Origin: Elainellaceae cyanobacterium
GTDB lineage: Bacteria; Cyanobacteriota; Cyanobacteriia; CAZCXK01
Assembly (NCBI GenBank): GCA_051117555.1
Contig: JBNPEG010000216.1
Location: forward strand, 1 to 14,606
Length of the DNA stretch: 14,606 nucleotides
Reading direction: 5' to 3'
A program made the position numbers and the translations under genes. The number at the start of each line of letters is the position of its first letter. Within the stretch, counting starts at the first letter, position 1. Positions 965-13,592 of the stretch are shown here, piece by piece. The notes below the pieces were generated by a model. The model saw nothing but the letters and a program-made list of their open reading frames with translations. It made no database searches and was not told where the DNA came from.

Positions 965-1357
965 ATGAATTCTACCTATGGAAGGTTATGTGGTATTACT
1001 GGTGGAGCACTGATATTGCTTGGTTTGACCCTACTTACCGTGATGCTGGTTTTCTTGGGCACGGGTCAGTCACCGATTCCAGTGGATGGCGTAGGGCATT
1101 ACTTTGTGGCATTTACGGGTTCTGTGCTAATGGTCTGGGGGGTGAGTCTACAAGTAGCCTCTCGGCATATGGAACTAGCACGTATCCTCGCCCCTGCTAA
1201 TGCAATTGGGATGGCGTTGATGGCGCTCTATCGATTGGTGATTGTGCTCAGCAGTGCTGATGTCAGAGCATGGATTGGCTTCCTTCCAATAGGCGAAGCG
1301 TTTCTTTTTGGTGGTTTAGCGATCGCCTTTTGGTGGGGACGCCCCAAGCCTGTTTAG
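965..1357 (+). CDS. Hypothetical integral membrane protein (about 4 TM helices), 130 aa
   Basis: GGAG at 954-957 upstream of the ATG; four hydrophobic segments. Confidence 0.75.
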   Translation: MNSTYGRLCGITGGALILLGLTLLTVMLVFLGTGQSPIPVDGVGHYFVAFTGSVLMVWGVSLQVASRHMELARILAPANAIGMALMALYRLVIVLSSADVRAWIGFLPIGEAFLFGGLAIAFWWGRPKPV

Positions 1358-1373
1358 GGCTGAGTGTTAAGCT

Positions 1374-1456
1374 ACCTAACGTGGAGCTGAGCGGCGGCCA
1401 GTATCTTGAGAAATATTAAGGATTGTCCGTCCGTCCGCTCCTGCGCAAGGTTATAT
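1374..1456 (-). other. Integron attC-like recombination site (83 bp)
   Basis: Minus strand: R'' ATATAAC, 5 nt, L'' GCAGGAGC, GG-A-CGG ... CCGCC, L' GCTCAGC, 5 nt, R' GTTAGGT. It has imperfect dyad symmetry with extra unpaired bases on the left arm as in known attC sites, and lies 46 nt after the helicase stop. Confidence 0.8.
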
Positions 1457-4243
1457 TGCTGCCAACAATTATTGGCTCATTCTATCTTTAAAATTACATG
1501 AATTATTGAACTGGCAAATCTTTCAGCTTTTTCTTTAGCAGCCAATCTTTAATATGTCGTAAATCAATTGATTTATCAGTATAAAATTTTAATGCATTGT
1601 CCTTTAATGCTTCCTCAGTATTGCCAGAGGCTGATGCACGTAGCTTTTCAAGCACGGTTGCAGTCTTTTTAAAGAGGTCAATTATCTCGTCATGAGAGAT
1701 GTAAGCAATATCTTTAAGATGAGGTACTGCTAACTGGTCAACAGTGTTTCTTGGAGAAATAACGACAGTAACACAAGGCATATATTTGGGAATAAGTTCA
1801 TCTGCACGAACTGTAGTTTCATGAGCACCTGCTTGTCGAAGTGTATCGAATGAAATCCCCCTTCCTGGCCTCTCGTTAGTTTTAGCTTCAAATACAAATG
1901 CACACCAATCTCCAAAGGTCCACAGTCCATCAGGTGCTCCATCTTCTTGACTCTTCTGATACATTTTCGAGCCGAGCATTCTTCCAAGAGCAGCTAAGCC
2001 TTTCTCAAACTCTCTAGCTTCTTTACTCCTGATTTGGGATTCCACATCGGCTAACCTGCGAGCGAATTTCCCACCTGTAATTCCCCATTCCTGAAGTAGT
2101 GTGTCGATCTCCAAGAACCAATCTTGTAAAGGTAAAGCTGTATCAATACTCTGATCAGATTGCCCTGAGACTTTAAAGCGCAGTTTTTCAAGCCATGTGA
2201 TGTGGGAAGAACTAGCTGCTGCTTTTTCTAAATTTGCAATAGTTGCAGTTCTAAATGACTCATTTTCTGAATGCTTCCAGGCTAAAAACGCAGCTTCAGC
2301 GGCCTGATGATACCAAAAAGCTCTGTATGGTTTTAGATCTGAACCTCCTTCCAAAGCATCAAGCACTTTATTTGACAAACTTAATGCGTCCTCATATCGA
2401 CCACGCCATAAAGAATATACATAGTCAATTTCATAAGGCATCGCTCTTGCTAGTGCATCGGCTGTCGAATCCGACACTTTTTCAAAAGCATCACGCCGCT
2501 TACGGATATCTTGTTCTGCTTCTTGCCATGCCGGATCACTATTGAGGAAAGCCTCAGAAAGTTCTACAAAATCTGATGTTTCATAATCTGTAGAGTTGTC
2601 TAGCCCGAATGCGATCTCAGCTTGTAATTCAGGGTGTATACCCTGTGTGAAGGTTTTAGTACAGTAACGCTTGGTTAACTTGTCTCCAATGACCACGACA
2701 ATAGAGTAATCGCTTTCATCACGAGTGCATCTTCCCATTGCTTGTGTAATCCGTGTTCGGATACGGTTTTGCAATTGAGAAGACACGCCAAGTCGAGTCC
2801 TCATATACATTTCTTGTAGTCCTGAAGCAGATGGTTCACCATCTAACACCATAAAGTGGCAATCATCTCCTGGAAGATCAATCCCATCGTAACGAGTTGC
2901 TAGTAGCAGAACAGATGGACTTGGATGCTTTGTGAATTTATCCAAATTCTGCTCAATATCCTCTGATTTAATAATGGTATGAGTTTCTTCTAAACCCTCT
3001 TCCCATTTACGAAGGCTATTGTTATCAGGAACAAGAATAAGAGCGCGAGAAACCTTCTTTATCATCTCAACTGAAGTTTTTACCGGATCTAAATTGGATG
3101 ATTGTCCTGGGAACAGAATTAGTCGCCTACCTGTACTCCGCTTATGCCATTCTTCGGGAATAGGCAATCGAGCAATTTTCTTTACTCCAAATACTCGTTC
3201 AATATCTCCATCTTCTCCTAGCGTAGCGGACATATATATACGCTGCTTTGCTTCTGAAAATGGGTGATGACTTTGTGTTGGTGGAATAAGCGGTCGAATC
3301 TCGATGGTTATAGGAGAGATATAAACTGAACATGCTTCAAGATGGGATGAAAGTATGCCCCATGAGTACTTTAAGTCTCTATGTTGAGGTGCAAATTCTT
3401 CTAATACTTCCTTCAGTTCATCTAAATACTCATGAACTGAAATGTTCGAAATCAGATCTACTAAGTATTCATCATACCGATTACTACTTTTTTCGATATG
3501 GTGCTTTATATAGTCAGGTATGGCGGACTGCAATAATCTATGTATAGCTGTATACAACTCCTTGTGTCTTAGCCGATTGATTGTAAGAGTCCATAAATCA
3601 ACAATGTAGTTATCCGCTGCATGAGCATCATCACAAATTATTACTTCGGGGTCATCTATACGAGGATTTGTATTGAAAACTCCACTGTAAGTTGTTATGG
3701 CAATAGCATTGCCTTGTTGATATTGGTAAAATAGAGACGAATCATACTCATTTTGGGGACCAATAAGCAGTGCAGTTTTAATACCATAGCGACGAGCTTG
3801 TTCATTAACTTGAAAACAAAGCTGTTTAGTTGGACACAAAAACACAATACGCTCTTTCAGAGCCCGACGGCGGTACTCTGCAATGAGAAGACCAATTAGA
3901 GTTTTTCCCGTACCTGTAGGTAGCTCAAGGGCTAGATCCTTACTTTTAAGATGTTCTTGATAATATCCTTCAAGCACTCTGTCCTGATGCGAATAAAGGT
4001 ATTTAACCGAAGGATCACGATTAAGATCCCTAAACATGAGCACTATAGATTGAGGCTTCGGTTCTTCAGAAGCAGAAGTACGAAATTTAACCATTGACTC
4101 CTCAGCAGATAATAATTTGTGGATTTTCAGTTTTATCCAGTTTAGCTGCTGTATTCAAGTATGACTTAGGCAGCTCAATCTCGTAGCTATAGAACTTCCT
4201 ATGTATTTCTATAGGAGGAGTTGAAGCAGTTGAAGCAATATAA
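1380..4243 (-). mobile_element. Integron-type gene cassette carrying the helicase-nuclease gene
   Basis: Bounded by GTTATATTGCT (minus strand, 4244-4234) and its exact inverted copy at the attC R'' end (1450-1460). AT-rich and free of HIP1. Confidence 0.72.
1503..4094 (-). CDS. SF2 DinG/XPD-like helicase fused to a C-terminal PD-(D/E)xK nuclease; Hna-like anti-phage candidate, 863 aa
   Basis: Motifs LPTGTGKT (I), IICDDAH (II), MSATLG (III), DGIDLPGD (V), QAMGRCTR (VI); C-terminal PDGLW...FEAKT; GAGGAG RBS at 4104-4099. Confidence 0.85.
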   Translation of the reverse strand: MVKFRTSASEEPKPQSIVLMFRDLNRDPSVKYLYSHQDRVLEGYYQEHLKSKDLALELPTGTGKTLIGLLIAEYRRRALKERIVFLCPTKQLCFQVNEQARRYGIKTALLIGPQNEYDSSLFYQYQQGNAIAITTYSGVFNTNPRIDDPEVIICDDAHAADNYIVDLWTLTINRLRHKELYTAIHRLLQSAIPDYIKHHIEKSSNRYDEYLVDLISNISVHEYLDELKEVLEEFAPQHRDLKYSWGILSSHLEACSVYISPITIEIRPLIPPTQSHHPFSEAKQRIYMSATLGEDGDIERVFGVKKIARLPIPEEWHKRSTGRRLILFPGQSSNLDPVKTSVEMIKKVSRALILVPDNNSLRKWEEGLEETHTIIKSEDIEQNLDKFTKHPSPSVLLLATRYDGIDLPGDDCHFMVLDGEPSASGLQEMYMRTRLGVSSQLQNRIRTRITQAMGRCTRDESDYSIVVVIGDKLTKRYCTKTFTQGIHPELQAEIAFGLDNSTDYETSDFVELSEAFLNSDPAWQEAEQDIRKRRDAFEKVSDSTADALARAMPYEIDYVYSLWRGRYEDALSLSNKVLDALEGGSDLKPYRAFWYHQAAEAAFLAWKHSENESFRTATIANLEKAAASSSHITWLEKLRFKVSGQSDQSIDTALPLQDWFLEIDTLLQEWGITGGKFARRLADVESQIRSKEAREFEKGLAALGRMLGSKMYQKSQEDGAPDGLWTFGDWCAFVFEAKTNERPGRGISFDTLRQAGAHETTVRADELIPKYMPCVTVVISPRNTVDQLAVPHLKDIAYISHDEIIDLFKKTATVLEKLRASASGNTEEALKDNALKFYTDKSIDLRHIKDWLLKKKLKDLPVQ

Positions 4244-4250
4244 CTATTAA

Positions 4251-4392
4251 TAGGCTGAAATTTTCCGCCTAAGATCCCAATTTGGGTGGATAGGCAGAAT
4301 GATTCAGCATAACACCCCAAATTTCATGCTTATGCAGATGGTTTCTGCATAATATGCCGCTCAGGCAGAATAGCCAGAATCTTTCCGCATAT
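4251..4392. repeat. Array of four ~22-bp imperfect palindromes at exact 40-bp period (candidate attI-like/recombinase binding region)
   Basis: 4251 TAGGCTGAAATTTTCCGCCTAA; 4291 TAGGCAGAATGATTCAGCATAA; 4331 TATGCAGATGGTTTCTGCATAA; 4371 TAGCCAGAATCTTTCCGCATAT. Confidence 0.85.
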
Positions 4393-4502
4393 TTTCAAAT
4401 TCGTTACGGAGGTGAGCGAATGGACTGTTAGTGCGATCGCCAAAGACCGTTCCTAAAGGATCATCACCCCACAATCCCATTAAATCTTTGCTAATAAGCC
4501 AA

Positions 4503-4538
4503 AGTACGGTTGTATTTCTTTCACGAATACACTATTCT
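4503..4538 (+). promoter_or_regulatory. Putative sigma70 promoter with overlapping LexA-like box
   Basis: TTGTAT (4510-4515), 17 nt, TATTCT (4533-4538). AGTACGGTTGTATT (4503-4516) is one mismatch from the cyanobacterial LexA consensus RGTAC-N3-DGTWCB. Confidence 0.45.
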
Positions 4539-4547
4539 TTGCCATTA

Positions 4548-4733
4548 AGCGCTCAAACAGCGCAGCGCTCCCTAGAAGTGCGGACACACGACTAGGAAGC
4601 TGACCCCTGACCCTGTCTCAGGCAGAATCAGTGGCTTTAGGCATTTTAGCTCCTATCGCCATCCTCCTTTGCCATGTCAAGTATCAGGGTGGCGTGTTTG
4701 TTTGAGCGCTCCTTATCAAAAAAAAAAGGAGCG
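4548..4733 (+). ncRNA. Putative structured leader RNA
   Basis: Perfect 12-bp closing stem AGCGCTCAAACA (4548-4559)/TGTTTGAGCGCT (4699-4710). Inner hairpin CCTAG...CTAGG (4571-4596). An alternative hairpin CGCTCCTT/AAGGAGCG (4707-4733) covers the RBS. Confidence 0.55.
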
Positions 4734-4739
4734 TACTTC

Positions 4740-4976
4740 ATGGTTTATCCACCTAATCCGCCCGGTGGGGCGGACAGTTCATCGCGTCCAGATGACGATC
4801 GCCATACCCTCCGCATCATTGCAGTAGGGTCGCTTACTGTTGTGAACCATCACATCATGCAGATGTATCAACTTGGCTATGCCGAACCGGGTGACTGGTC
4901 AAAACCCATTCCCACCGTAAATCCCAACGAAGTGATGCAAATTCTCACGAAACGTATCATGGGCATTGGTGACTAG
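4740..4976 (+). CDS. Small cyanobacterial hypothetical protein (78 aa; LGYAExxDWS motif)
   Basis: AAGGAG at 4726-4731 favours ATG 4740 over 4674. The sequence LRIIAVGS...LGYAEPGDWSKPIPT...EVMQILTK resembles a recurrent cyanobacterial small-protein family of unknown function. Confidence 0.75.
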   Translation: MVYPPNPPGGADSSSRPDDDRHTLRIIAVGSLTVVNHHIMQMYQLGYAEPGDWSKPIPTVNPNEVMQILTKRIMGIGD

Positions 4977-4996
4977 CACCGATTTACTACTTCACA

Positions 4997-5040
4997 GACT
5001 GGCGTACGGGCAAACGGCGCCATTTGCCCGTACACCAGTC
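4997..5040. repeat. REP-like palindrome
   Basis: GACTGGCGTACGGGCAAA / TTTGCCCGTACACCAGTC form an 18-bp stem with one mismatch, resembling cyanobacterial GTA(G/C)GGGC...GCCC(C/G)TAC REPs. Confidence 0.65.
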
Positions 5041-5090
5041 ATTCTTAGCCAATTTGGAGCAACTGCGCATCAAGTACAGAAGTAGTGGAT

Positions 5091-5137
5091 TGAGGCAACG
5101 ATGGGATGGCTAAAATAGCTATCCCATCGTTGTTTCA
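5091..5137. terminator. Long hairpin between convergent genes, likely terminator
   Basis: TGAGGCAACGATGGGATGGCTA-AAA-TAGCTATCCCATCGTTGTTTCA, 19 nt past the aroF stop. Confidence 0.65.
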
Positions 5138-5156
5138 TCGGGCTTCTATGCAATGG

Positions 5157-6014
5157 CTAAACGGCAACAAGTTGAGGCCGACTGACCTGTTTGGGAATGG
5201 TTCGACCGACTGCGGCAGCAATGGGGTCGAGGCTTTGAACCAGGCTTACCATATCCTCAAGCGATAAGGCTTGGCGGGCATCAGACACAGACTCATCGGG
5301 CACAGGATGACACTCAATCATGAGTCCATCGGCTCCACAGGCGATCGCTGCACGTGCTAGGTCAGGCACGAGTTCGCGTTTTCCGGTTGCATGACTCGGA
5401 TCAACAATCACAGGGAGGTGGGTAATTTGCTTGAGTGCCACGACTGCCCCCAAATCAAGCACATTGCGCGTGTAGGTATCAAAACTGCGAATGCCGCGCT
5501 CGCATAAAATCACGTTTGGGTTACCGTGAGCGATGATATATTCTGCCGCCATCACAAACTCTTCAAGGGTTGCAGCAAGTCCACGCTTGAGCACGACTGG
5601 CGTGCCTGCTTGCCCAACGGCTTTGAGCAAATCAAAATTTTGCATATTGCGGCTGCCAATCTGGAGCACATCTGCGTGGGTGGCGATCGCCTCGATCTGA
5701 GAAATTGCCATGACCTCGGTAATGACGGGCAGATTGTGGCGGGTGCGAATGGTGTCCAAAATTTTAAGCCCCGCATCGCCTAATCCCTGGAACGAGTAAG
5801 GAGACGTGCGGGGCTTATAGACACCACCTCGGAGAGCTTGTACCGGGGCGATCGCCAGTTCTGTTGCGATTGTGTCCATTTGCTCAAGACTTTCAACCGA
5901 ACATGGCCCTCCCACAATCAGCAAGTCTGTTCCTCCGACTGCTACCTGGGCTGACAATTGCACAACGACCTGGTGATCATCATGAGATTTGCGAACGAGT
6001 TTGGCCTGTTGCAT
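5157..6014 (-). CDS. aroF: 3-deoxy-7-phosphoheptulonate (DAHP) synthase, type I-beta
   Basis: Motifs GPCSVES, RGGVYKPRTSPYSFQG, QIGSRNMQNF, LKRG, CERGIR, DPSH; AGGAG RBS. Confidence 0.95.
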   Translation of the reverse strand: MQQAKLVRKSHDDHQVVVQLSAQVAVGGTDLLIVGGPCSVESLEQMDTIATELAIAPVQALRGGVYKPRTSPYSFQGLGDAGLKILDTIRTRHNLPVITEVMAISQIEAIATHADVLQIGSRNMQNFDLLKAVGQAGTPVVLKRGLAATLEEFVMAAEYIIAHGNPNVILCERGIRSFDTYTRNVLDLGAVVALKQITHLPVIVDPSHATGKRELVPDLARAAIACGADGLMIECHPVPDESVSDARQALSLEDMVSLVQSLDPIAAAVGRTIPKQVSRPQLVAV

Positions 6015-7642: not shown

Positions 7643-8419
7643 ATGTCTAGACTCCGGCGCAGGAAAGACGGGAAATTTAGGGCTAAGTCAACTGAAGATC
7701 GCAAAGTCCGTAGTATCCGAGCAACCGATTCAGCATGGGAATCCTTGGGGGATATTGCTGAGTCACAAAACATGACGCGGGCTGACCTGATGGAGAAAAT
7801 GGTTCAGGATGGCAAGCTAGACTGCATTCAAGGGATTGACGTGCTTCAAGAGCTAGTCCATCAGCTTAAACCGGATCACGAATTACTACCAATTCAAGAA
7901 CTGGTGCAGCAGCTTGAACCTGAGGCACAGATTGGCTCGCTTCGCGAGCTTGTTCAACATCTGCAACCCATTCAGGATCTTGTTCATCAACTCGACCCCA
8001 TTCAAGAACTCGCTCAAAAGTTAGAACCCTTTCAGGAACTTGCTCAAAAGCTAGAGCCCATCCAGGAACTTGCTCAAAAGCTGGAAGCGATTCAAGGAGT
8101 CGGCCTTCTCCAGGCGCTGGGTAAAGATATCGATGTCGTGTCGGATACTGCGGCGGGTATAGAAGCTCTGCGAACAACGCCCAATCAGCTAGAAGTACTG
8201 GATAAACGTGCGATCGCCCTTGACATGATCCATCAATTTATCGAGGAATATGATTTGGAGCATAAAGTTGCGAACCCCCACGAATATCGTGAATATCAAG
8301 GGCTAGCAGACCTGGAAAAATGGCTCATGCGGCAGTCGGCGCTGATGTCGCTGGTTCACATCAATGGTCAATCCAATGGTCAATCCAATGGTCAATCGTC
8401 TTATCCCAGCCCAATTTGA
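7643..8419 (+). CDS. Ribbon-helix-helix (CopG-like) DNA-binding protein with internal 10-aa repeats, 258 aa
   Basis: VRSIRATDSAWESLGDIAESQNMTRADLMEKM fits a beta-helix-helix pattern; PIQELAQKLE repeats follow. Confidence 0.7.
   Translation: MSRLRRRKDGKFRAKSTEDRKVRSIRATDSAWESLGDIAESQNMTRADLMEKMVQDGKLDCIQGIDVLQELVHQLKPDHELLPIQELVQQLEPEAQIGSLRELVQHLQPIQDLVHQLDPIQELAQKLEPFQELAQKLEPIQELAQKLEAIQGVGLLQALGKDIDVVSDTAAGIEALRTTPNQLEVLDKRAIALDMIHQFIEEYDLEHKVANPHEYREYQGLADLEKWLMRQSALMSLVHINGQSNGQSNGQSSYPSPI
7967..8095 (+). repeat. Coding tandem repeat, 30-nt unit, about 4.3 copies
   Basis: PIQDLVHQLD PIQELAQKLE PFQELAQKLE PIQELAQKLE AIQ. Confidence 0.9.
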
Positions 8420-8662
8420 ATAGTGGGGAGCATCACACATTTGTAACTGTATCAATGTTTGTAGCGCGGACATCTTGCCCGCGTTGGCTACGCTAATTCT
8501 CAATTTTGGATTTTCGATTTTGGATCGACAGATATCGATGTTGAGAAGATTCCAGCCTGTGCGTAGTGTTCACTTCTTGCGGTGCGATCGCCCGTTTGCA
8601 ACCATACCTGTGCAAGATATTCATCAACGATCACACTCTGCTTTTGTGCAACTCGTTAAAAT

Positions 8663-10132: not shown

Positions 10133-11490
10133 TGATTCAGGCTATGCCTACACGAATAATCGCCTCGTTTGAATCGACCTTTGGCCAGGTTGTCGACGCG
10201 CTTCTCAATGCCCTCAATGCTGACGAATATTTAACCATTCAGTTAGTCGGTGAAGATAGCCAGTTTATTCGGTTTAATCATGCCAGAGTCCGGCAAACCG
10301 GATGCGTTACTGACGGACAGATGAAACTGACGCTGATGCACAATCAGCGCATGAGCTTTCGGTCATTTCCGTTTCGGGGTGAATGGGATGGGGATTGGGC
10401 CTATGCAAAAGCGGCGCTCGACGAGCTACGTCAAGAGGTTCCGCAGCTTCCTGTTGATCCCTATTTGGTGCTCCCAACAGGAAATGCGACCAGCCGCGAT
10501 CGCCACCAAGGACAGCTCCTTTCACACGATTCGGCGGTCGATGAAATCTTGCCTGCCGTAAGTGGGCTAGACTTTGCAGGAATTTATGCGGGAGGCTTGT
10601 CTATTCGGGCGTATGCCGATTCGGTTGGGCAACGCCATTGGTTTGCGACAGACTCATTTGCGCTCGATTATTCAATCTTTGCTGACGACGGGCAAGCCGT
10701 TAAGGGCACGTTCGCCGGAACTGACTGGGATGCGCACTCCTATGCTGAAACCCTAGCCACGTCAAAGCGCCAGCTTGAAAAACTTGCGCGATCGCCCAAA
10801 CAGGTTCCCAAAGGACACTATCGCACCTATTTTTCGCCGGCGGCAGTTGCAGATTTGGTGAGCATGTTTTCGTGGGGATGTGTGAGTGAGGCATCCCTCC
10901 AGCGAGGGGGAAGCGCATTAGGTGCCCTCCAGAGAGGTGATAAAGCGCTGTCGCCGCTGTTTACGCTCAGCGAAAATTTTGCCCGTGGATTGGTGCCTCG
11001 CTTCAACGATTTGGGAGAAGTCGCTCCAGTAGAGTTGCCCCTGATTAAAAACGGCAAACTTATGAACACGCTGATCAGTTCTCGGACTGCCAAAGAATAC
11101 GGCAAAACGGCTAATGGGGCAGCTAGTGGAGAATATCTGCGATCGCCTGAGGTCAGCCTAGGCACCCTATCCACCTCAGATATTCTCCCCGCTCTTGATA
11201 CGGGGCTGTATGTCTCTAACCTGCACTATCTCAACTGGAGCGATCGCCAAAATGGTCGCGTCACGGGCATGACTCGCTATGCGTGCTTTTGGGTAGAAGA
11301 CGGAGAGATGATTGCTCCCATCAAAGATCTTCGATTTGATGAAAGCCTCTACCGATTTTTTGGCGAGAATCTCATCAACCTAACCAATGTTCCAGAATTT
11401 ATTCCTGAAGTAGGCACCTACGGACTGCGAGATTTGGGTGGGACCTGGGTTCCCGGTGCGCTTGTCGAAGGATTTACCTACACGCTCTGA
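10129..11490 (+). CDS. tldE: TldE/PmbA-like partner subunit
   Basis: ATGA overlap with tldD; TldE-like C-terminus (TGMTRYACFWVEDG...LRFDES); lacks HExxxH. Confidence 0.85.
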   Translation: MMIQAMPTRIIASFESTFGQVVDALLNALNADEYLTIQLVGEDSQFIRFNHARVRQTGCVTDGQMKLTLMHNQRMSFRSFPFRGEWDGDWAYAKAALDELRQEVPQLPVDPYLVLPTGNATSRDRHQGQLLSHDSAVDEILPAVSGLDFAGIYAGGLSIRAYADSVGQRHWFATDSFALDYSIFADDGQAVKGTFAGTDWDAHSYAETLATSKRQLEKLARSPKQVPKGHYRTYFSPAAVADLVSMFSWGCVSEASLQRGGSALGALQRGDKALSPLFTLSENFARGLVPRFNDLGEVAPVELPLIKNGKLMNTLISSRTAKEYGKTANGAASGEYLRSPEVSLGTLSTSDILPALDTGLYVSNLHYLNWSDRQNGRVTGMTRYACFWVEDGEMIAPIKDLRFDESLYRFFGENLINLTNVPEFIPEVGTYGLRDLGGTWVPGALVEGFTYTL

Positions 11491-11658
11491 TGGGTGACCT
11501 ATGTGAACCGTATCAAATGGTATACACGGGCGATCGCGCATCCCTTAACACAGCATTAGCCAGCTTAGGACATGACTTCTGACTCAAACCAAAGCCGGGG
11601 AAGCTGGCATGCAACTGCACAAAGAACTGTGGCGGTTGATATAAAATCTACCCAAGGC

Positions 11659-12792: not shown

Positions 12793-13240
12793 TCCATTCG
12801 CCTCCCAATGATGTTATGCATTCATTTTGCCAATAGTTTGGAAAATTACGGGCCTATCCAAGGGTAAAGAATAGCCCGATAAGGGGGTATCGTTCTGACA
12901 TTATTCTGAATACTGTTCTGACATTAATCATAGGCCGATAACTAAATTTAGCTATCGTAGGGACATTGGCTGTTCTAAGGATAGAGATTGATTAATGCTC
13001 TCCTGTAAGAGGTTTGAGAGCAAAAGGCATACTGGCTCTGTAACCGCGTTAATTCAACCCTGTGATAGCGAACGTGATGGCGGGGGCACGCTGTTCCTTC
13101 GAACTGGGAGCACTATGGATGGCATTATAGCAGCGATCGCCCGATGTGCTGGTTATCTGAGTAACGTTGTTCGACAGACTCCAGCAAAACTACGGGGGTA
13201 GGTGTGTCGTAAGCCCCCGCGCCGCGAGGGCTCACGACAC

Positions 13241-13592
13241 GTTCAACGTGTTCAAGATTGTCGCCCCAGACGGTGACATTGATTACTGGGCAACTAATGA
13301 CCTCGAGATGAGTGAACTGCAACGACTCAAGTGGGCTGACTTCGAGTGCTCGATTGAGGAATACCATCGCGGTTTGAAACAGTGTTGCGGCGTCGAAAGC
13401 GCCCAAGTGCGCTCCTCCAGGGCACAGCGCAACCATATTGGCTTTGCCATTCGAGCCTTTCTGCGCCTAGAGATGCATTGGTTCAACACGGGCGTGAGTT
13501 GGGACGAGAGCACACTCAAAATTGTGCGCGAAGCCGTGCGATCCTATTTAGCCGCTCCCACCATTAAGCTAGTTCCAACTGCGTAAGTCCTG
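13241..13592 (+). mobile_element. IS701-family remnant: transposase C-terminus plus right end
   Basis: VFKIV...YWATNDL...IEEYHRGLKQCCGVE..QVRS.RAQRNHI; ends TGCGTAAGTCCTG (13580-13592); N-terminal part absent. Confidence 0.85.

Follow-up and report, generated by a model that had tools for sequence, protein, structure and literature searches.

The window, a stretch of 14,606 nucleotides that makes up the entire contig C7 of an Elainellaceae cyanobacterium assembly, very probably carries a genuine integron gene cassette: an Hna-type helicase-nuclease gene of 2.9 kb, docked at a platform whose own integron integrase gene (intI), judging from sequence comparison, has been deleted. We assign the cassette with high confidence to the minus strand at 1380-4243, where a leader of ~150 nt and a single 863-aa open reading frame (ORF) are followed by an 83-nt attC site. 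Integron-borne defence cassettes have been recorded before, as have decayed integrons of cyanobacteria.

The probable cassette, its ends and its attC site

1380-4243, minus strand: whole integrated cassette, 2864 bp, with limits set by the R' box of attC and by the putative attI junction; low G+C, HIP1 absent
4095-4243, minus strand: 5' leader of the cassette; its first bases past the crossover, TTATATTGCT (minus strand, from 4243), form the complement of the R'' box of the same cassette
1503-4094, minus strand: cassette ORF of 863 aa, an Hna-family SF2 helicase with a C-terminal PD-(D/E)xK nuclease; PADLOC candidate family PDC-S28
1374-1456, minus strand: attC of the cassette, with R'' ATATAAC at 1456-1450, a G+C-rich bulged stem, a loop of ~30 nt and R' GTTAGGT at 1380-1374

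The preliminary description of this DNA had proposed that an AT-rich, HIP1-free segment is a cassette of ~2.86 kb inserted at G^TT, and both the composition and the structure of the segment bear this out. G+C content was 0.36-0.45 over 1401-4400 versus 0.47-0.58 in most flanking intervals, and HIP1 (GCGATCGC) occurred 18 times in the window but not once in the 3.1 kb between 1327 and 4432. We counted these two properties as support for a foreign origin, together with the absence of the cassette and its left flank from the locus in same-genus relatives. The ORF runs towards its own attC (4094..1503, then attC at 1456..1374), with its stop at 1503-1505, before the attC on the minus strand; a promoter scan found no sigma-70-like promoter upstream of the ORF on that strand. 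G|TT is present at both cassette ends (minus-strand GTT at 4244-4242 and 1380-1378), and the crossover in attC is expected between G1380 and T1379. The attC model, the boundary of the adjoining repeat element B (see below) and the match of the cassette start to its own R'' box all agree on this placement.

The attC-like site directly 3' of the stop belongs to a family of hairpins in the same genome. A search for sibling sites recovered 19 others, which make up a covarying family: the consensus hairpin is bulged and closed by AAC...GTT, with asymmetric bulges and the '' arm the longer, and compensatory changes were found at 9 of 19 pairs among the 8 seed sites. Across 19 distinct sites, pairing was realized in 84.8% of cells, compared with 68.4% in shuffles (0 of 500 reached the observed value) and 32-45% in slid controls. 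A covariance model, R2, trained on the 19 other sites of the genome with the window site excluded, scored the latter at 31.0 bits (1365-1469, minus strand; E 5.9e-6 in the window), the runner-up in the window being the reverse strand of the attC itself (8.8 bits). Genome-wide, the site had an E of 0.0024, a modest value, and ranked 21st of 24 matches, 19 of them trained and 5 untrained. An earlier model, R1, scored it no higher than 16.1 bits (in-window E 0.011) and did not include it among its 19 genome-wide matches at E up to 1. An exact 22-nt word from the attC 3' arm led to eight metagenome loci, seven of which hold an attC whose 5' arm is the same but whose loop and R boxes differ (23-38 bits with R2); these siblings lie in same-strand arrays, with 17 R2 matches across the eight loci. 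No Rfam family matched anywhere in the window at gathering score, and below that threshold only three matches to miRNA models appeared over 1300-5200.

Folded as single-stranded DNA, the minus strand of the attC reached -18.2 kcal/mol, compared with -11.35 +/- 2.23 for shuffles (z -3.07; 1 of 200 equal). The plus strand folded no better than its shuffles (z -0.66; 57 of 200). In a classical attC the plus strand would be the recombining bottom strand, and its failure to outfold shuffles counts against the cassette reading.

At the other end of the cassette, the plus-strand sequence at 4234-4244 (AGCAATATAAC) is the exact reverse complement of that at 1450-1460 (GTTATATTGCT), so that the inverted copy reported for 4244-4234 is verified. 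Such a repeat is weak evidence alone because the window contains 76 inverted pairs of at least 11 nt; only its position makes it meaningful. The cassette start matched its own R'' box at 11 of 11 positions and the other 28 R'' boxes at no more than 9 of 11. More generally, start-to-own-R'' complementarity averaged 7.67/11 over 15 cognate pairs and 6.32 over 420 non-cognate ones (p 0.0098 by permutation), and the rule failed (6/11 or fewer) in 7 of the 15 cassettes, perhaps owing to undetected attCs.

It is possible, though less likely than not, that the element, once captured by an integron, can no longer be mobilized because it is too large, its attC has decayed or the IntI is incompatible, and that it now behaves as an ordinary chromosomal defence gene. 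Recovery of cassettes drops with size, and an attC spacing of 4 kb abolished recovery in Vibrio according to an excerpt of 10.64898/2026.03.17.712381. The attC of the window forms 14 of the 19 model pairs (family range, 12 to 19), and a homologue in a same-genus genome (G002:C77) has retained the 5' boundary, with the identical start (GTTATAC...) adjoining a B-like site, in the absence of an attC. Against such fixation, both R boxes are intact, the perfect match between start and R'' would decay in a long-fixed copy, and the genome still holds an intact intI.

Element B and the deletion of the integrase gene

4244-4432, minus strand: element B, a putative attI-like site plus the former intI upstream region, ending at the G of G|TT (4244)
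4433-4440, no strand assigned: HIP1 at the junction of the intI deletion
4504-4976, plus strand: gene A, with a conserved structured leader of ~235 nt (4504-4739) and a 78-aa ORF (4740-4976)
G014:C47, G014:C8, G014:C55, G031:C328, G037:C95, G002:C13 and G002:C66: loci of related genomes in which B lies directly upstream of intI

Element B is ~190 bp long and contains several GTTATGC-like boxes in alternating orientation. It has one sharp end only; the other side continues into intI, and the two are directly adjacent in the seven loci listed above. In 19 of 22 copies the sharp end is a conserved AAC (GTT), with unrelated DNA beyond, and the insertion boundary at 4243/4244 that had been proposed as a G|TT crossover falls on this shared end. 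On these sequence grounds we read B as attI, which would here lie beside the first cassette as in other integrons.

As had been noted at the outset, the window lacks an integrase: the integron integrase model TIGR02249 had no match on contig C7, so that, by the usual definition of a complete integron, there is no intI adjacent to the array. A genome-wide search for intI yielded TIGR02249 matches on contigs C211 and C168 alone. The gene at C211:1257-2195 is intact and scored 466 bits (cut-off, 265), compared with less than 150 bits for XerC/D models; none of 14 control genomes passed the TIGR02249 cut-off. Alignment of B-A fusions with B-intI copies indicated that the intI of the window was deleted between B and the HIP1 at 4433. 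The intI stop lies directly before the homologous point in C211, C168 and G002:C13, and positions 4433-4957 match the sequence that immediately follows intI on C211 and C168. The deletion spans the DNA between a point ~40 nt upstream of the start codon of intI and the HIP1 just past its stop codon, and it fused B to the gene that normally follows intI. An identical fusion was found in the window and three G002 loci, such that the intI-less platform recurs in at least four loci of two species. At a sibling intI-less platform, G002:C20, IetA (340 bits) and IetS (1217 bits) lie between B and the first attC, which is 3.8 kb from B.

Gene A, which lies downstream of intI in complete platforms, is the neighbour of the cassette and is outside it. 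At least 11 paralogous copies are present in the genome, mostly away from intI; the consensus fold of the leader has a free energy of -45.6 kcal/mol, and gene A matched no Pfam family and no Rfam family at E up to 1. The repeat at 4433-4957 was considered as the attI of an "inverted integrase" integron and rejected, being instead this small multicopy gene with its structured leader.

The preliminary description had left it open whether the IntI responsible acted in trans or had since been lost. Both may hold for a cassette in first position at an attI-like platform that has lost its intI: the alignment shows the loss, and an intact IntI is encoded elsewhere in the genome. One refinement is that the cassette is no orphan at a secondary site. 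In the history that we propose, a circular form of the cassette would have integrated through attI x attC recombination, catalysed by IntI, at the G|TT of B, the recipient being a chromosomal integron platform with B (4244-4432) as its docking site. Later, as the sequence shows, the platform lost intI by deletion, leaving B fused to gene A; the intact intI of C211 might yet act on the cassette in trans, by excision or reinsertion.

A bolder version, which we regard as unlikely, holds that the B-A platform is more than wreckage: a docking module that recurs and is maintained, that the one intact IntI serves in trans, and that prefers large defence systems in first position. The suggestion of a module comes from the deletion endpoint common to the window, contig C182 and three loci in the same-genus genome. 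That of a preference comes from cargo size, with Hna at 2.9 kb here and IetAS at 3.8 kb in a relative. B is also multicopy, which counts against the main reading: one genome (G027) carries four copies of B in a single 7-kb array and has no intI match at E 1e-20 or better, so B may be more than a plain attI. On the bolder version, B might be a distinct recombination site that spreads or acts without a resident integrase.

Returning to the reading of B as attI, there is only a slight chance that IntI placed a real cassette at a secondary (non-attI) GTT site, with B a mere neighbouring repeat. Secondary-site insertion and single attC sites are both on record in an excerpt of PMC4889954, and many of the copies of B lie away from intI. 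However, B abuts the 5' end of intI in seven loci, the 19 copies ending at AAC do so each time beside different DNA, and the first cassettes in C182, G002:C56, G002:C20 and G002:C13 start exactly at the end of B. Least credible of all is an origin without any integron, as a defence island acquired by another route, with a terminator or REP-like repeat for a hairpin and a MITE with a chance end at 4241 for B: the hairpin does lie between convergent genes, where a terminator is expected, and 11-bp inverted repeats are common by chance, but the hairpin family shows covariation, AAC/GTT closure and members in same-strand arrays next to intI or B, the hairpin is followed by no T run and was not listed by a terminator scan, and B has a single sharp end with its other side running into intI.

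The Hna-type cargo and its homologues

Domain and profile searches upheld the helicase-nuclease identity given to the ORF at first sight. The protein matched PDC-S28 over its full length (E 1.3e-118), and the ResIII, DEAD and Helicase_C_2 domains all scored above their cut-offs. As a single sequence it aligned with PDB 10UJ over residues 9-499 only (E 4.2e-40); the data-availability passage of PMC13381803 gives 10UJ as the Hna monomer. A profile of 45 homologues extended the alignment to query stretches 1-525 and 686-814 (E 1.5e-69), the nuclease part (686-814) aligning with 10UJ residues 677-804. The profile was needed for this part because the C-terminal domain alone gave no meaningful match in the PDB. 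In all 45 homologues, the helicase motifs (Walker A, DEAD/H-type; G61, G63, K64 and T65, and D155, D156 and H158) and the PD..ExK motif (P721, D722, G723, E736 and K738) are invariant. By homology, the cargo most likely protects against phage as Hna does. If its mode of action is that of its homologue, the enzyme would be held by ATP in an auto-inhibited state until a phage protein unleashes its ssDNA exonuclease, aborting the infection.

The gene is not generally cassette-borne: of six homologous genes from other cyanobacteria, five have only the ORF in common with it, and R2 detected no attC behind any of the six. Outside any cassette, the ORF occurs in other cyanobacteria with a nucleotide identity of 70-81%, and the homology ends where the ORF does; the sole significant R2 match in the homologue loci is upstream of the gene, at the G002 locus. 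The search for an empty site, as proposed in the preliminary description, did not succeed: the predicted empty junction had no exact match in metagenome contigs, and none was found in relatives, whose DNA could not show the locus in its unoccupied form. G001, G002, G003 and G023 all lack a homologue of the left-flank gene (965-1357), and the DUF1731 gene has only paralogues of 33-37% identity in G001 and G002. Public sequencing runs each contained at most 0.21 of the sampled words, and the matches listed included no RNA run. Contigs of four public runs held no excision or integration joint; one (X6) follows 2935-4228 and then diverges, and another (X3) has 33 nt in common with the attC.

Significance and comparison with known systems

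With these results, the recent picture of integrons as anti-phage gene libraries would reach beyond Vibrio and clinical plasmids to cyanobacteria and to the Hna family. The results also suggest that cassettes of ~3 to 4 kb with one or two large genes can occupy attI. How an attC becomes attached to a gene is described as an unknown step in an excerpt of PMC4889954; the pair formed by the cassette ORF and its non-cassette counterparts offers a concrete case, whichever the direction of change. Cassette-borne defence genes may also be under-counted, because standard finders would drop a single attC with an attI and no intI.

Cury et al. (2016; PMC4889954) count cyanobacteria among the hosts of integrons. 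As in the sedentary chromosomal integrons and CALIN elements covered by excerpts of that paper, the window combines one ORF, an imperfectly palindromic attC closed by AAC...GTT and insertion at G|TT beside a putative attI. An IntI of the TIGR02249 family is common to known integrons and the host genome, and loss of intI with cassettes left behind is seen in known decayed integrons and in the window alike. A CALIN comprises two or more attC sites with no intI near them; in contrast, the window has one attC, retains the putative attI and has lost intI by a clean deletion, so the default IntegronFinder rules would discard the element. Also atypical are the recurrence of an intI-less platform in at least four loci of two species and the cassette length of 2.9 kb.

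Phage-defence cassettes in integrons have reportedly been described by Darracq et al. in 2025 and by Getz et al. in 2025, and the sibling platform carrying Iet parallels such cassettes. In an excerpt of Kieffer et al. (10.1101/2024.07.02.601719), as here, a defence gene is the first-position cassette of an integron; these studies deal with mobile integrons of Proteobacteria and chromosomal integrons of Vibrio, whereas the present cassette is from a cyanobacterium and has an Hna-type cargo. A literature search combining Hna, integron and cassette returned no relevant paper by title. Hna itself is said to have been first described by Sather et al. in 2023. Like the Hna of Hooper et al. (2026; PMC13381803, in excerpt), the ORF product is a single polypeptide of ~850 aa in which an SF2 helicase takes up the N-terminal part and a PD-(D/E)xK nuclease the C-terminal part, both of them collinear with PDB 10UJ. 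It is a distant relative of Hna, in another host and another genomic setting.

The attI1 site of class 1 integrons consists of a simple site (L/R) and the accessory repeats DR1 and DR2. B resembles attI1 in its L/R-like imperfect inverted repeat at the end, its G|TT crossover and its further GTTATGC-like boxes upstream. It differs in being longer, with more boxes, in its conservation at 70-96% identity across several cyanobacterial families and in its many copies, some of which lie within arrays.

Cassette layout and the attC hairpin

The source assembly (6.06 Mb) is rich in HIP1 sites, and the window, which is contig C7 in its entire length of 14,606 bp, carries the following features in the flagged region.

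1503..4094, minus strand: helicase-nuclease ORF, the sole long ORF in the region (863 aa)
1456-1450, minus strand: attC R'' box ATATAAC, beginning 46 nt past the ORF stop
between R'' (1456-1450) and R' (1380-1374), minus strand: attC stem-loop, G+C-rich and bulged
1380-1374, minus strand: attC R' box GTTAGGT

The preliminary description had placed an attC-like site after the stop and an inverted 11-bp copy at the opposite end, within a segment AT-richer than its flanks and lacking HIP1. Sequence confirmed the first two: taken as its reverse complement, 4234-4244 is identical to 1450-1460 over all 11 bases. Alone, this repeat is little proof because a repeat scan found 76 inverted pairs of at least 11 nt in the window. 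The compositional claims also held, with G+C at 0.36 to 0.45 within the cassette segment versus mostly 0.47 to 0.58 outside, and none of the 18 HIP1 sites in the window lying between 1327 and 4432.

The attC hairpin folded better than shuffled sequences on the minus strand (z, -3.07; 1 of 200 shuffles as good) and no better than shuffles on the plus strand (z, -0.66). IntegronFinder discards single attC sites, and CALIN needs at least two (PMC4889954, in excerpt). Two covariance models were trained without the window. The seed was the hairpin behind the first ORF beside the integrase gene (intI) of contig C211, with siblings on other contigs gathered by nhmmer; in the eight seed siblings, AAC...GTT closed the consensus hairpin, and compensatory changes were seen in 9 of 19 pairs. 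The model built from these eight, R1, placed the attC site on top of seven places in the window at E ≤ 10 (16.1 bits; E, 0.011), and the site was absent from the 19 that R1 listed genome-wide at E ≤ 1. Model R2 was retrained on 21 matches (19 distinct). In its alignment, 84.8% of cells paired versus 68.4% in shuffles (0 of 500 reached this value) and 32 to 45% with slid partners.

R2 matched the window at 1365-1469 (minus strand) with 31.0 bits (E, 5.9e-6); the second place, at 8.8 bits, was the reverse strand of the attC site itself. Genome-wide at E ≤ 1, R2 listed 24 matches (5 in addition to the 19 training sites), among which the window attC ranked 21st (E, 0.0024); sibling sites, proposed as a check, do exist in this genome. 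Same-strand arrays of R2 matches lie on C182, C194, C168, and C248. Of the 19 pairs in the model, the window site makes 14, within a family range of 12 to 19. An exact 22-nt word from the attC 3' arm matched eight metagenome loci, seven of which share the attC 5' arm, which lay outside the query, and score 23 to 38 bits with R2; their loops and R boxes differ from those of the window site. Further same-strand R2 sites occur at six of these seven, with 17 R2 matches over all eight loci. The eighth locus was rejected as a chance match in G+C-rich DNA, with no R2 match there. Judged by its R2 score and the metagenome siblings, we regard the window hairpin as an attC.

The cassette boundary at an attI-like element

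When a cassette is circular, one R' box that pairs with R'' is formed by the bases after the 5' G|TT together with the G before the 3' end. We compared 11-mers from 15 cassettes with known start and closing attC (from the window, C182, C211, C194, C168, C248, and loci of the same-genus genome G002). Start/R'' matches averaged 7.67 in the 15 cognate pairs versus 6.32 in 420 noncognate pairs (permutation P = 0.0098). The window cassette start matched its own R'' at 11 of 11 positions and any other R'' at 9 of 11 at best. Cognate scores were 6 or lower in 7 of the 15 pairs, possibly reflecting missed intervening attCs.

Upstream of the cassette, element B (window 4241-4437) recurs in many cyanobacterial genomes, with matches beginning sharply at 4240-4242. 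It abuts the 5' end of intI on the upstream side in five contigs of other cyanobacteria (G014:C47, G014:C8, G014:C55, G031:C328, and G037:C95) and in G002:C13 and G002:C66. When 22 copies were anchored on the conserved block, 19 had ...AAC directly before it and unrelated DNA beyond; one was shifted by one base, and two were misanchored on an internal repeat. Read on the cassette strand, conserved B ends in G, followed by TT and variable bases, the product expected of attI × attC recombination. B also holds several GTTATGC-like boxes in alternating orientation. On these comparisons, the boundary at B reads as the attI crossover. The R2 match, the B boundary, and the 11/11 fit to the cassette rule together bear out the proposal of a ~2.86-kb integron cassette.

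Another cyanobacterial locus, L078 (G027:C1:2645000-2661000), carries four B copies (3826-3890, 4814-4968, 8554-8646, and 10970-11117) in one orientation, interspersed among ORFs on the same strand and two attC matches over ~7 kb; at a threshold of E 1e-20, G027 had no intI match. The textbook integron does not account for several attI-like sites within a single array.

Integrase loss and the flanking DNA

An intact 322-aa intI is present on C211 (TIGR02249, 466 bits versus a cutoff of 265; Xer models give much lower scores), and C168 holds two small intI fragments. TIGR02249 scored above the cutoff in 18 of 41 genomes sampled from the class and in none of 14 control genomes. C7 had no TIGR02249 match, as the preliminary description had held in reporting no integrase in the window and suggesting a search elsewhere in the genome. 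Of its two alternatives, an IntI acting in trans or since lost, alignment bears out the second, and both can be true. Where intI is retained, its start codon lies ~40 nt past the position at which B stops in the window, and a homologue of window 4433-4957 starts right after the intI stop codon in C211, C168, and G002:C13. In the window, the end of B is joined to a HIP1 site where intI would follow, and intI is deleted between them. The same intI-less fusion occurs at three G002 loci, and C182 shares its left endpoint; therefore, the platform is old or was copied.

Next to the cassette, "gene A" (4504-4976, plus strand) comprises a 78-aa ORF (4740-4976) after a conserved ~235-nt leader with a multistem consensus fold (-45.6 kcal/mol). 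Paralogous copies (68 to 93% identity) number at least 11 and are scattered over the genome; four copies directly follow intI (C211, C168, G002:C13, and G002:C66). It matched no Pfam or Rfam family and is possibly an undescribed cis-regulatory RNA, or a noncoding RNA plus a small protein.

The same-genus genomes G001 and G002 align with the window solely to the right of 5067/5149, at the DAHP synthase gene, with other DNA on the far side; the window's left-flank genes are absent or merely distantly related there. Between gene A and the DAHP synthase 3' end, near this homology start, are two near-perfect palindromes with 22-nt arms (4997-5040, 91% complementary, and 5091-5137, 86%). The DUF1731-domain gene (123-862) is 91% (DNA) and 93% (protein) identical to a gene of G023, from another family, whereas same-genus paralogues are only 33 to 34% identical, which suggests that the left flank was also recently horizontally transferred.

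The contig ends (1-130 and 14478-14606) are 98 to 100% identical to ~125-nt stretches at or near other contig ends (seven contigs match the left end, four the right); the assembly broke there at dispersed repeats or assembly-graph overlaps. A 258-aa ORF (7643-8419) without a Pfam match contains 30-nt periodic repeats (7841-8088; six copies, 69 to 100% identical to a reference copy) and, at 8362-8397, a perfect 12-nt triplet repeat. Three dispersed repeats (8425-8562, 11550-11645, and 13190-13252; ~60 to 95 nt, ~7 to 14 further copies in the genome, 76 to 93% identity) look REP- or MITE-like.

The cargo and known defence cassettes

The 863-aa protein matches the PADLOC candidate family PDC-S28 end to end (E, 1.3e-118) and carries Pfam domains ResIII, DEAD, and Helicase_C_2. 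As a single sequence, its closest solved structure is 10UJ (E, 4.2e-40; residues 9-499), the Hna monomer (PMC13381803, in excerpt). A profile of 45 homologues matched 10UJ in two collinear stretches (E, 1.5e-69), the second spanning the nuclease, in which PDGLW...FEAK aligns to PDNLW...FECK; P721, D722, G723, E736, and K738 are invariant among homologues. Hna is described in that paper as an autoinhibited dimer and a 3'-5' ssDNA exonuclease activated by a phage SSB, and we infer by analogy that the 863-aa protein would work likewise.

Homologues occur at six loci of other cyanobacteria (67 to 85% amino acid identity over the best segment), where nucleotide homology of 70 to 88% is confined to the ORF; only in G002 does it run further, to 4144. 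R2 found no attC behind any of the six genes. The G002:C77 gene follows a diverged B-like site and the identical cassette start GTTATAC..., has no attC on its 3' side, and looks like a cassette fixed by attC loss. This homologue (locus L017, 3457-6300; 79% nucleotide identity) departs from the window about where R'' is expected. Among other cassettes, one of ~3.8 kb on G002:C20 (L068, 849-4623) encodes IetA (328 aa, 340 bits) and IetS (806 aa, 1,217 bits), the pair filling the 3.8 kb that separates a B platform lacking intI from the first attC; another encodes PDC-S70, and several encode DUF433/DUF5615 pairs.

The window segment is a real integron cassette that carries a putative defence gene of the Hna type and sits at an attI that has lost its integrase gene by deletion. 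Cyanobacteria are listed among integron hosts (PMC4889954, in excerpt), and cassette recovery drops as size grows (bioRxiv 10.64898/2026.03.17.712381, in excerpt). Defence systems are established cassette cargo (Kieffer, bioRxiv 10.1101/2024.07.02.601719, in excerpt), and bioRxiv 10.64898/2026.03.17.712381 cites three papers of 2025 on integron defence cassettes, two in Science and one in Nat Microbiol. Searching the literature for Hna in combination with integron and cassette gave nothing relevant, judged by titles. Integron defence cassettes are already known, and the Hna-type cassette adds a member.
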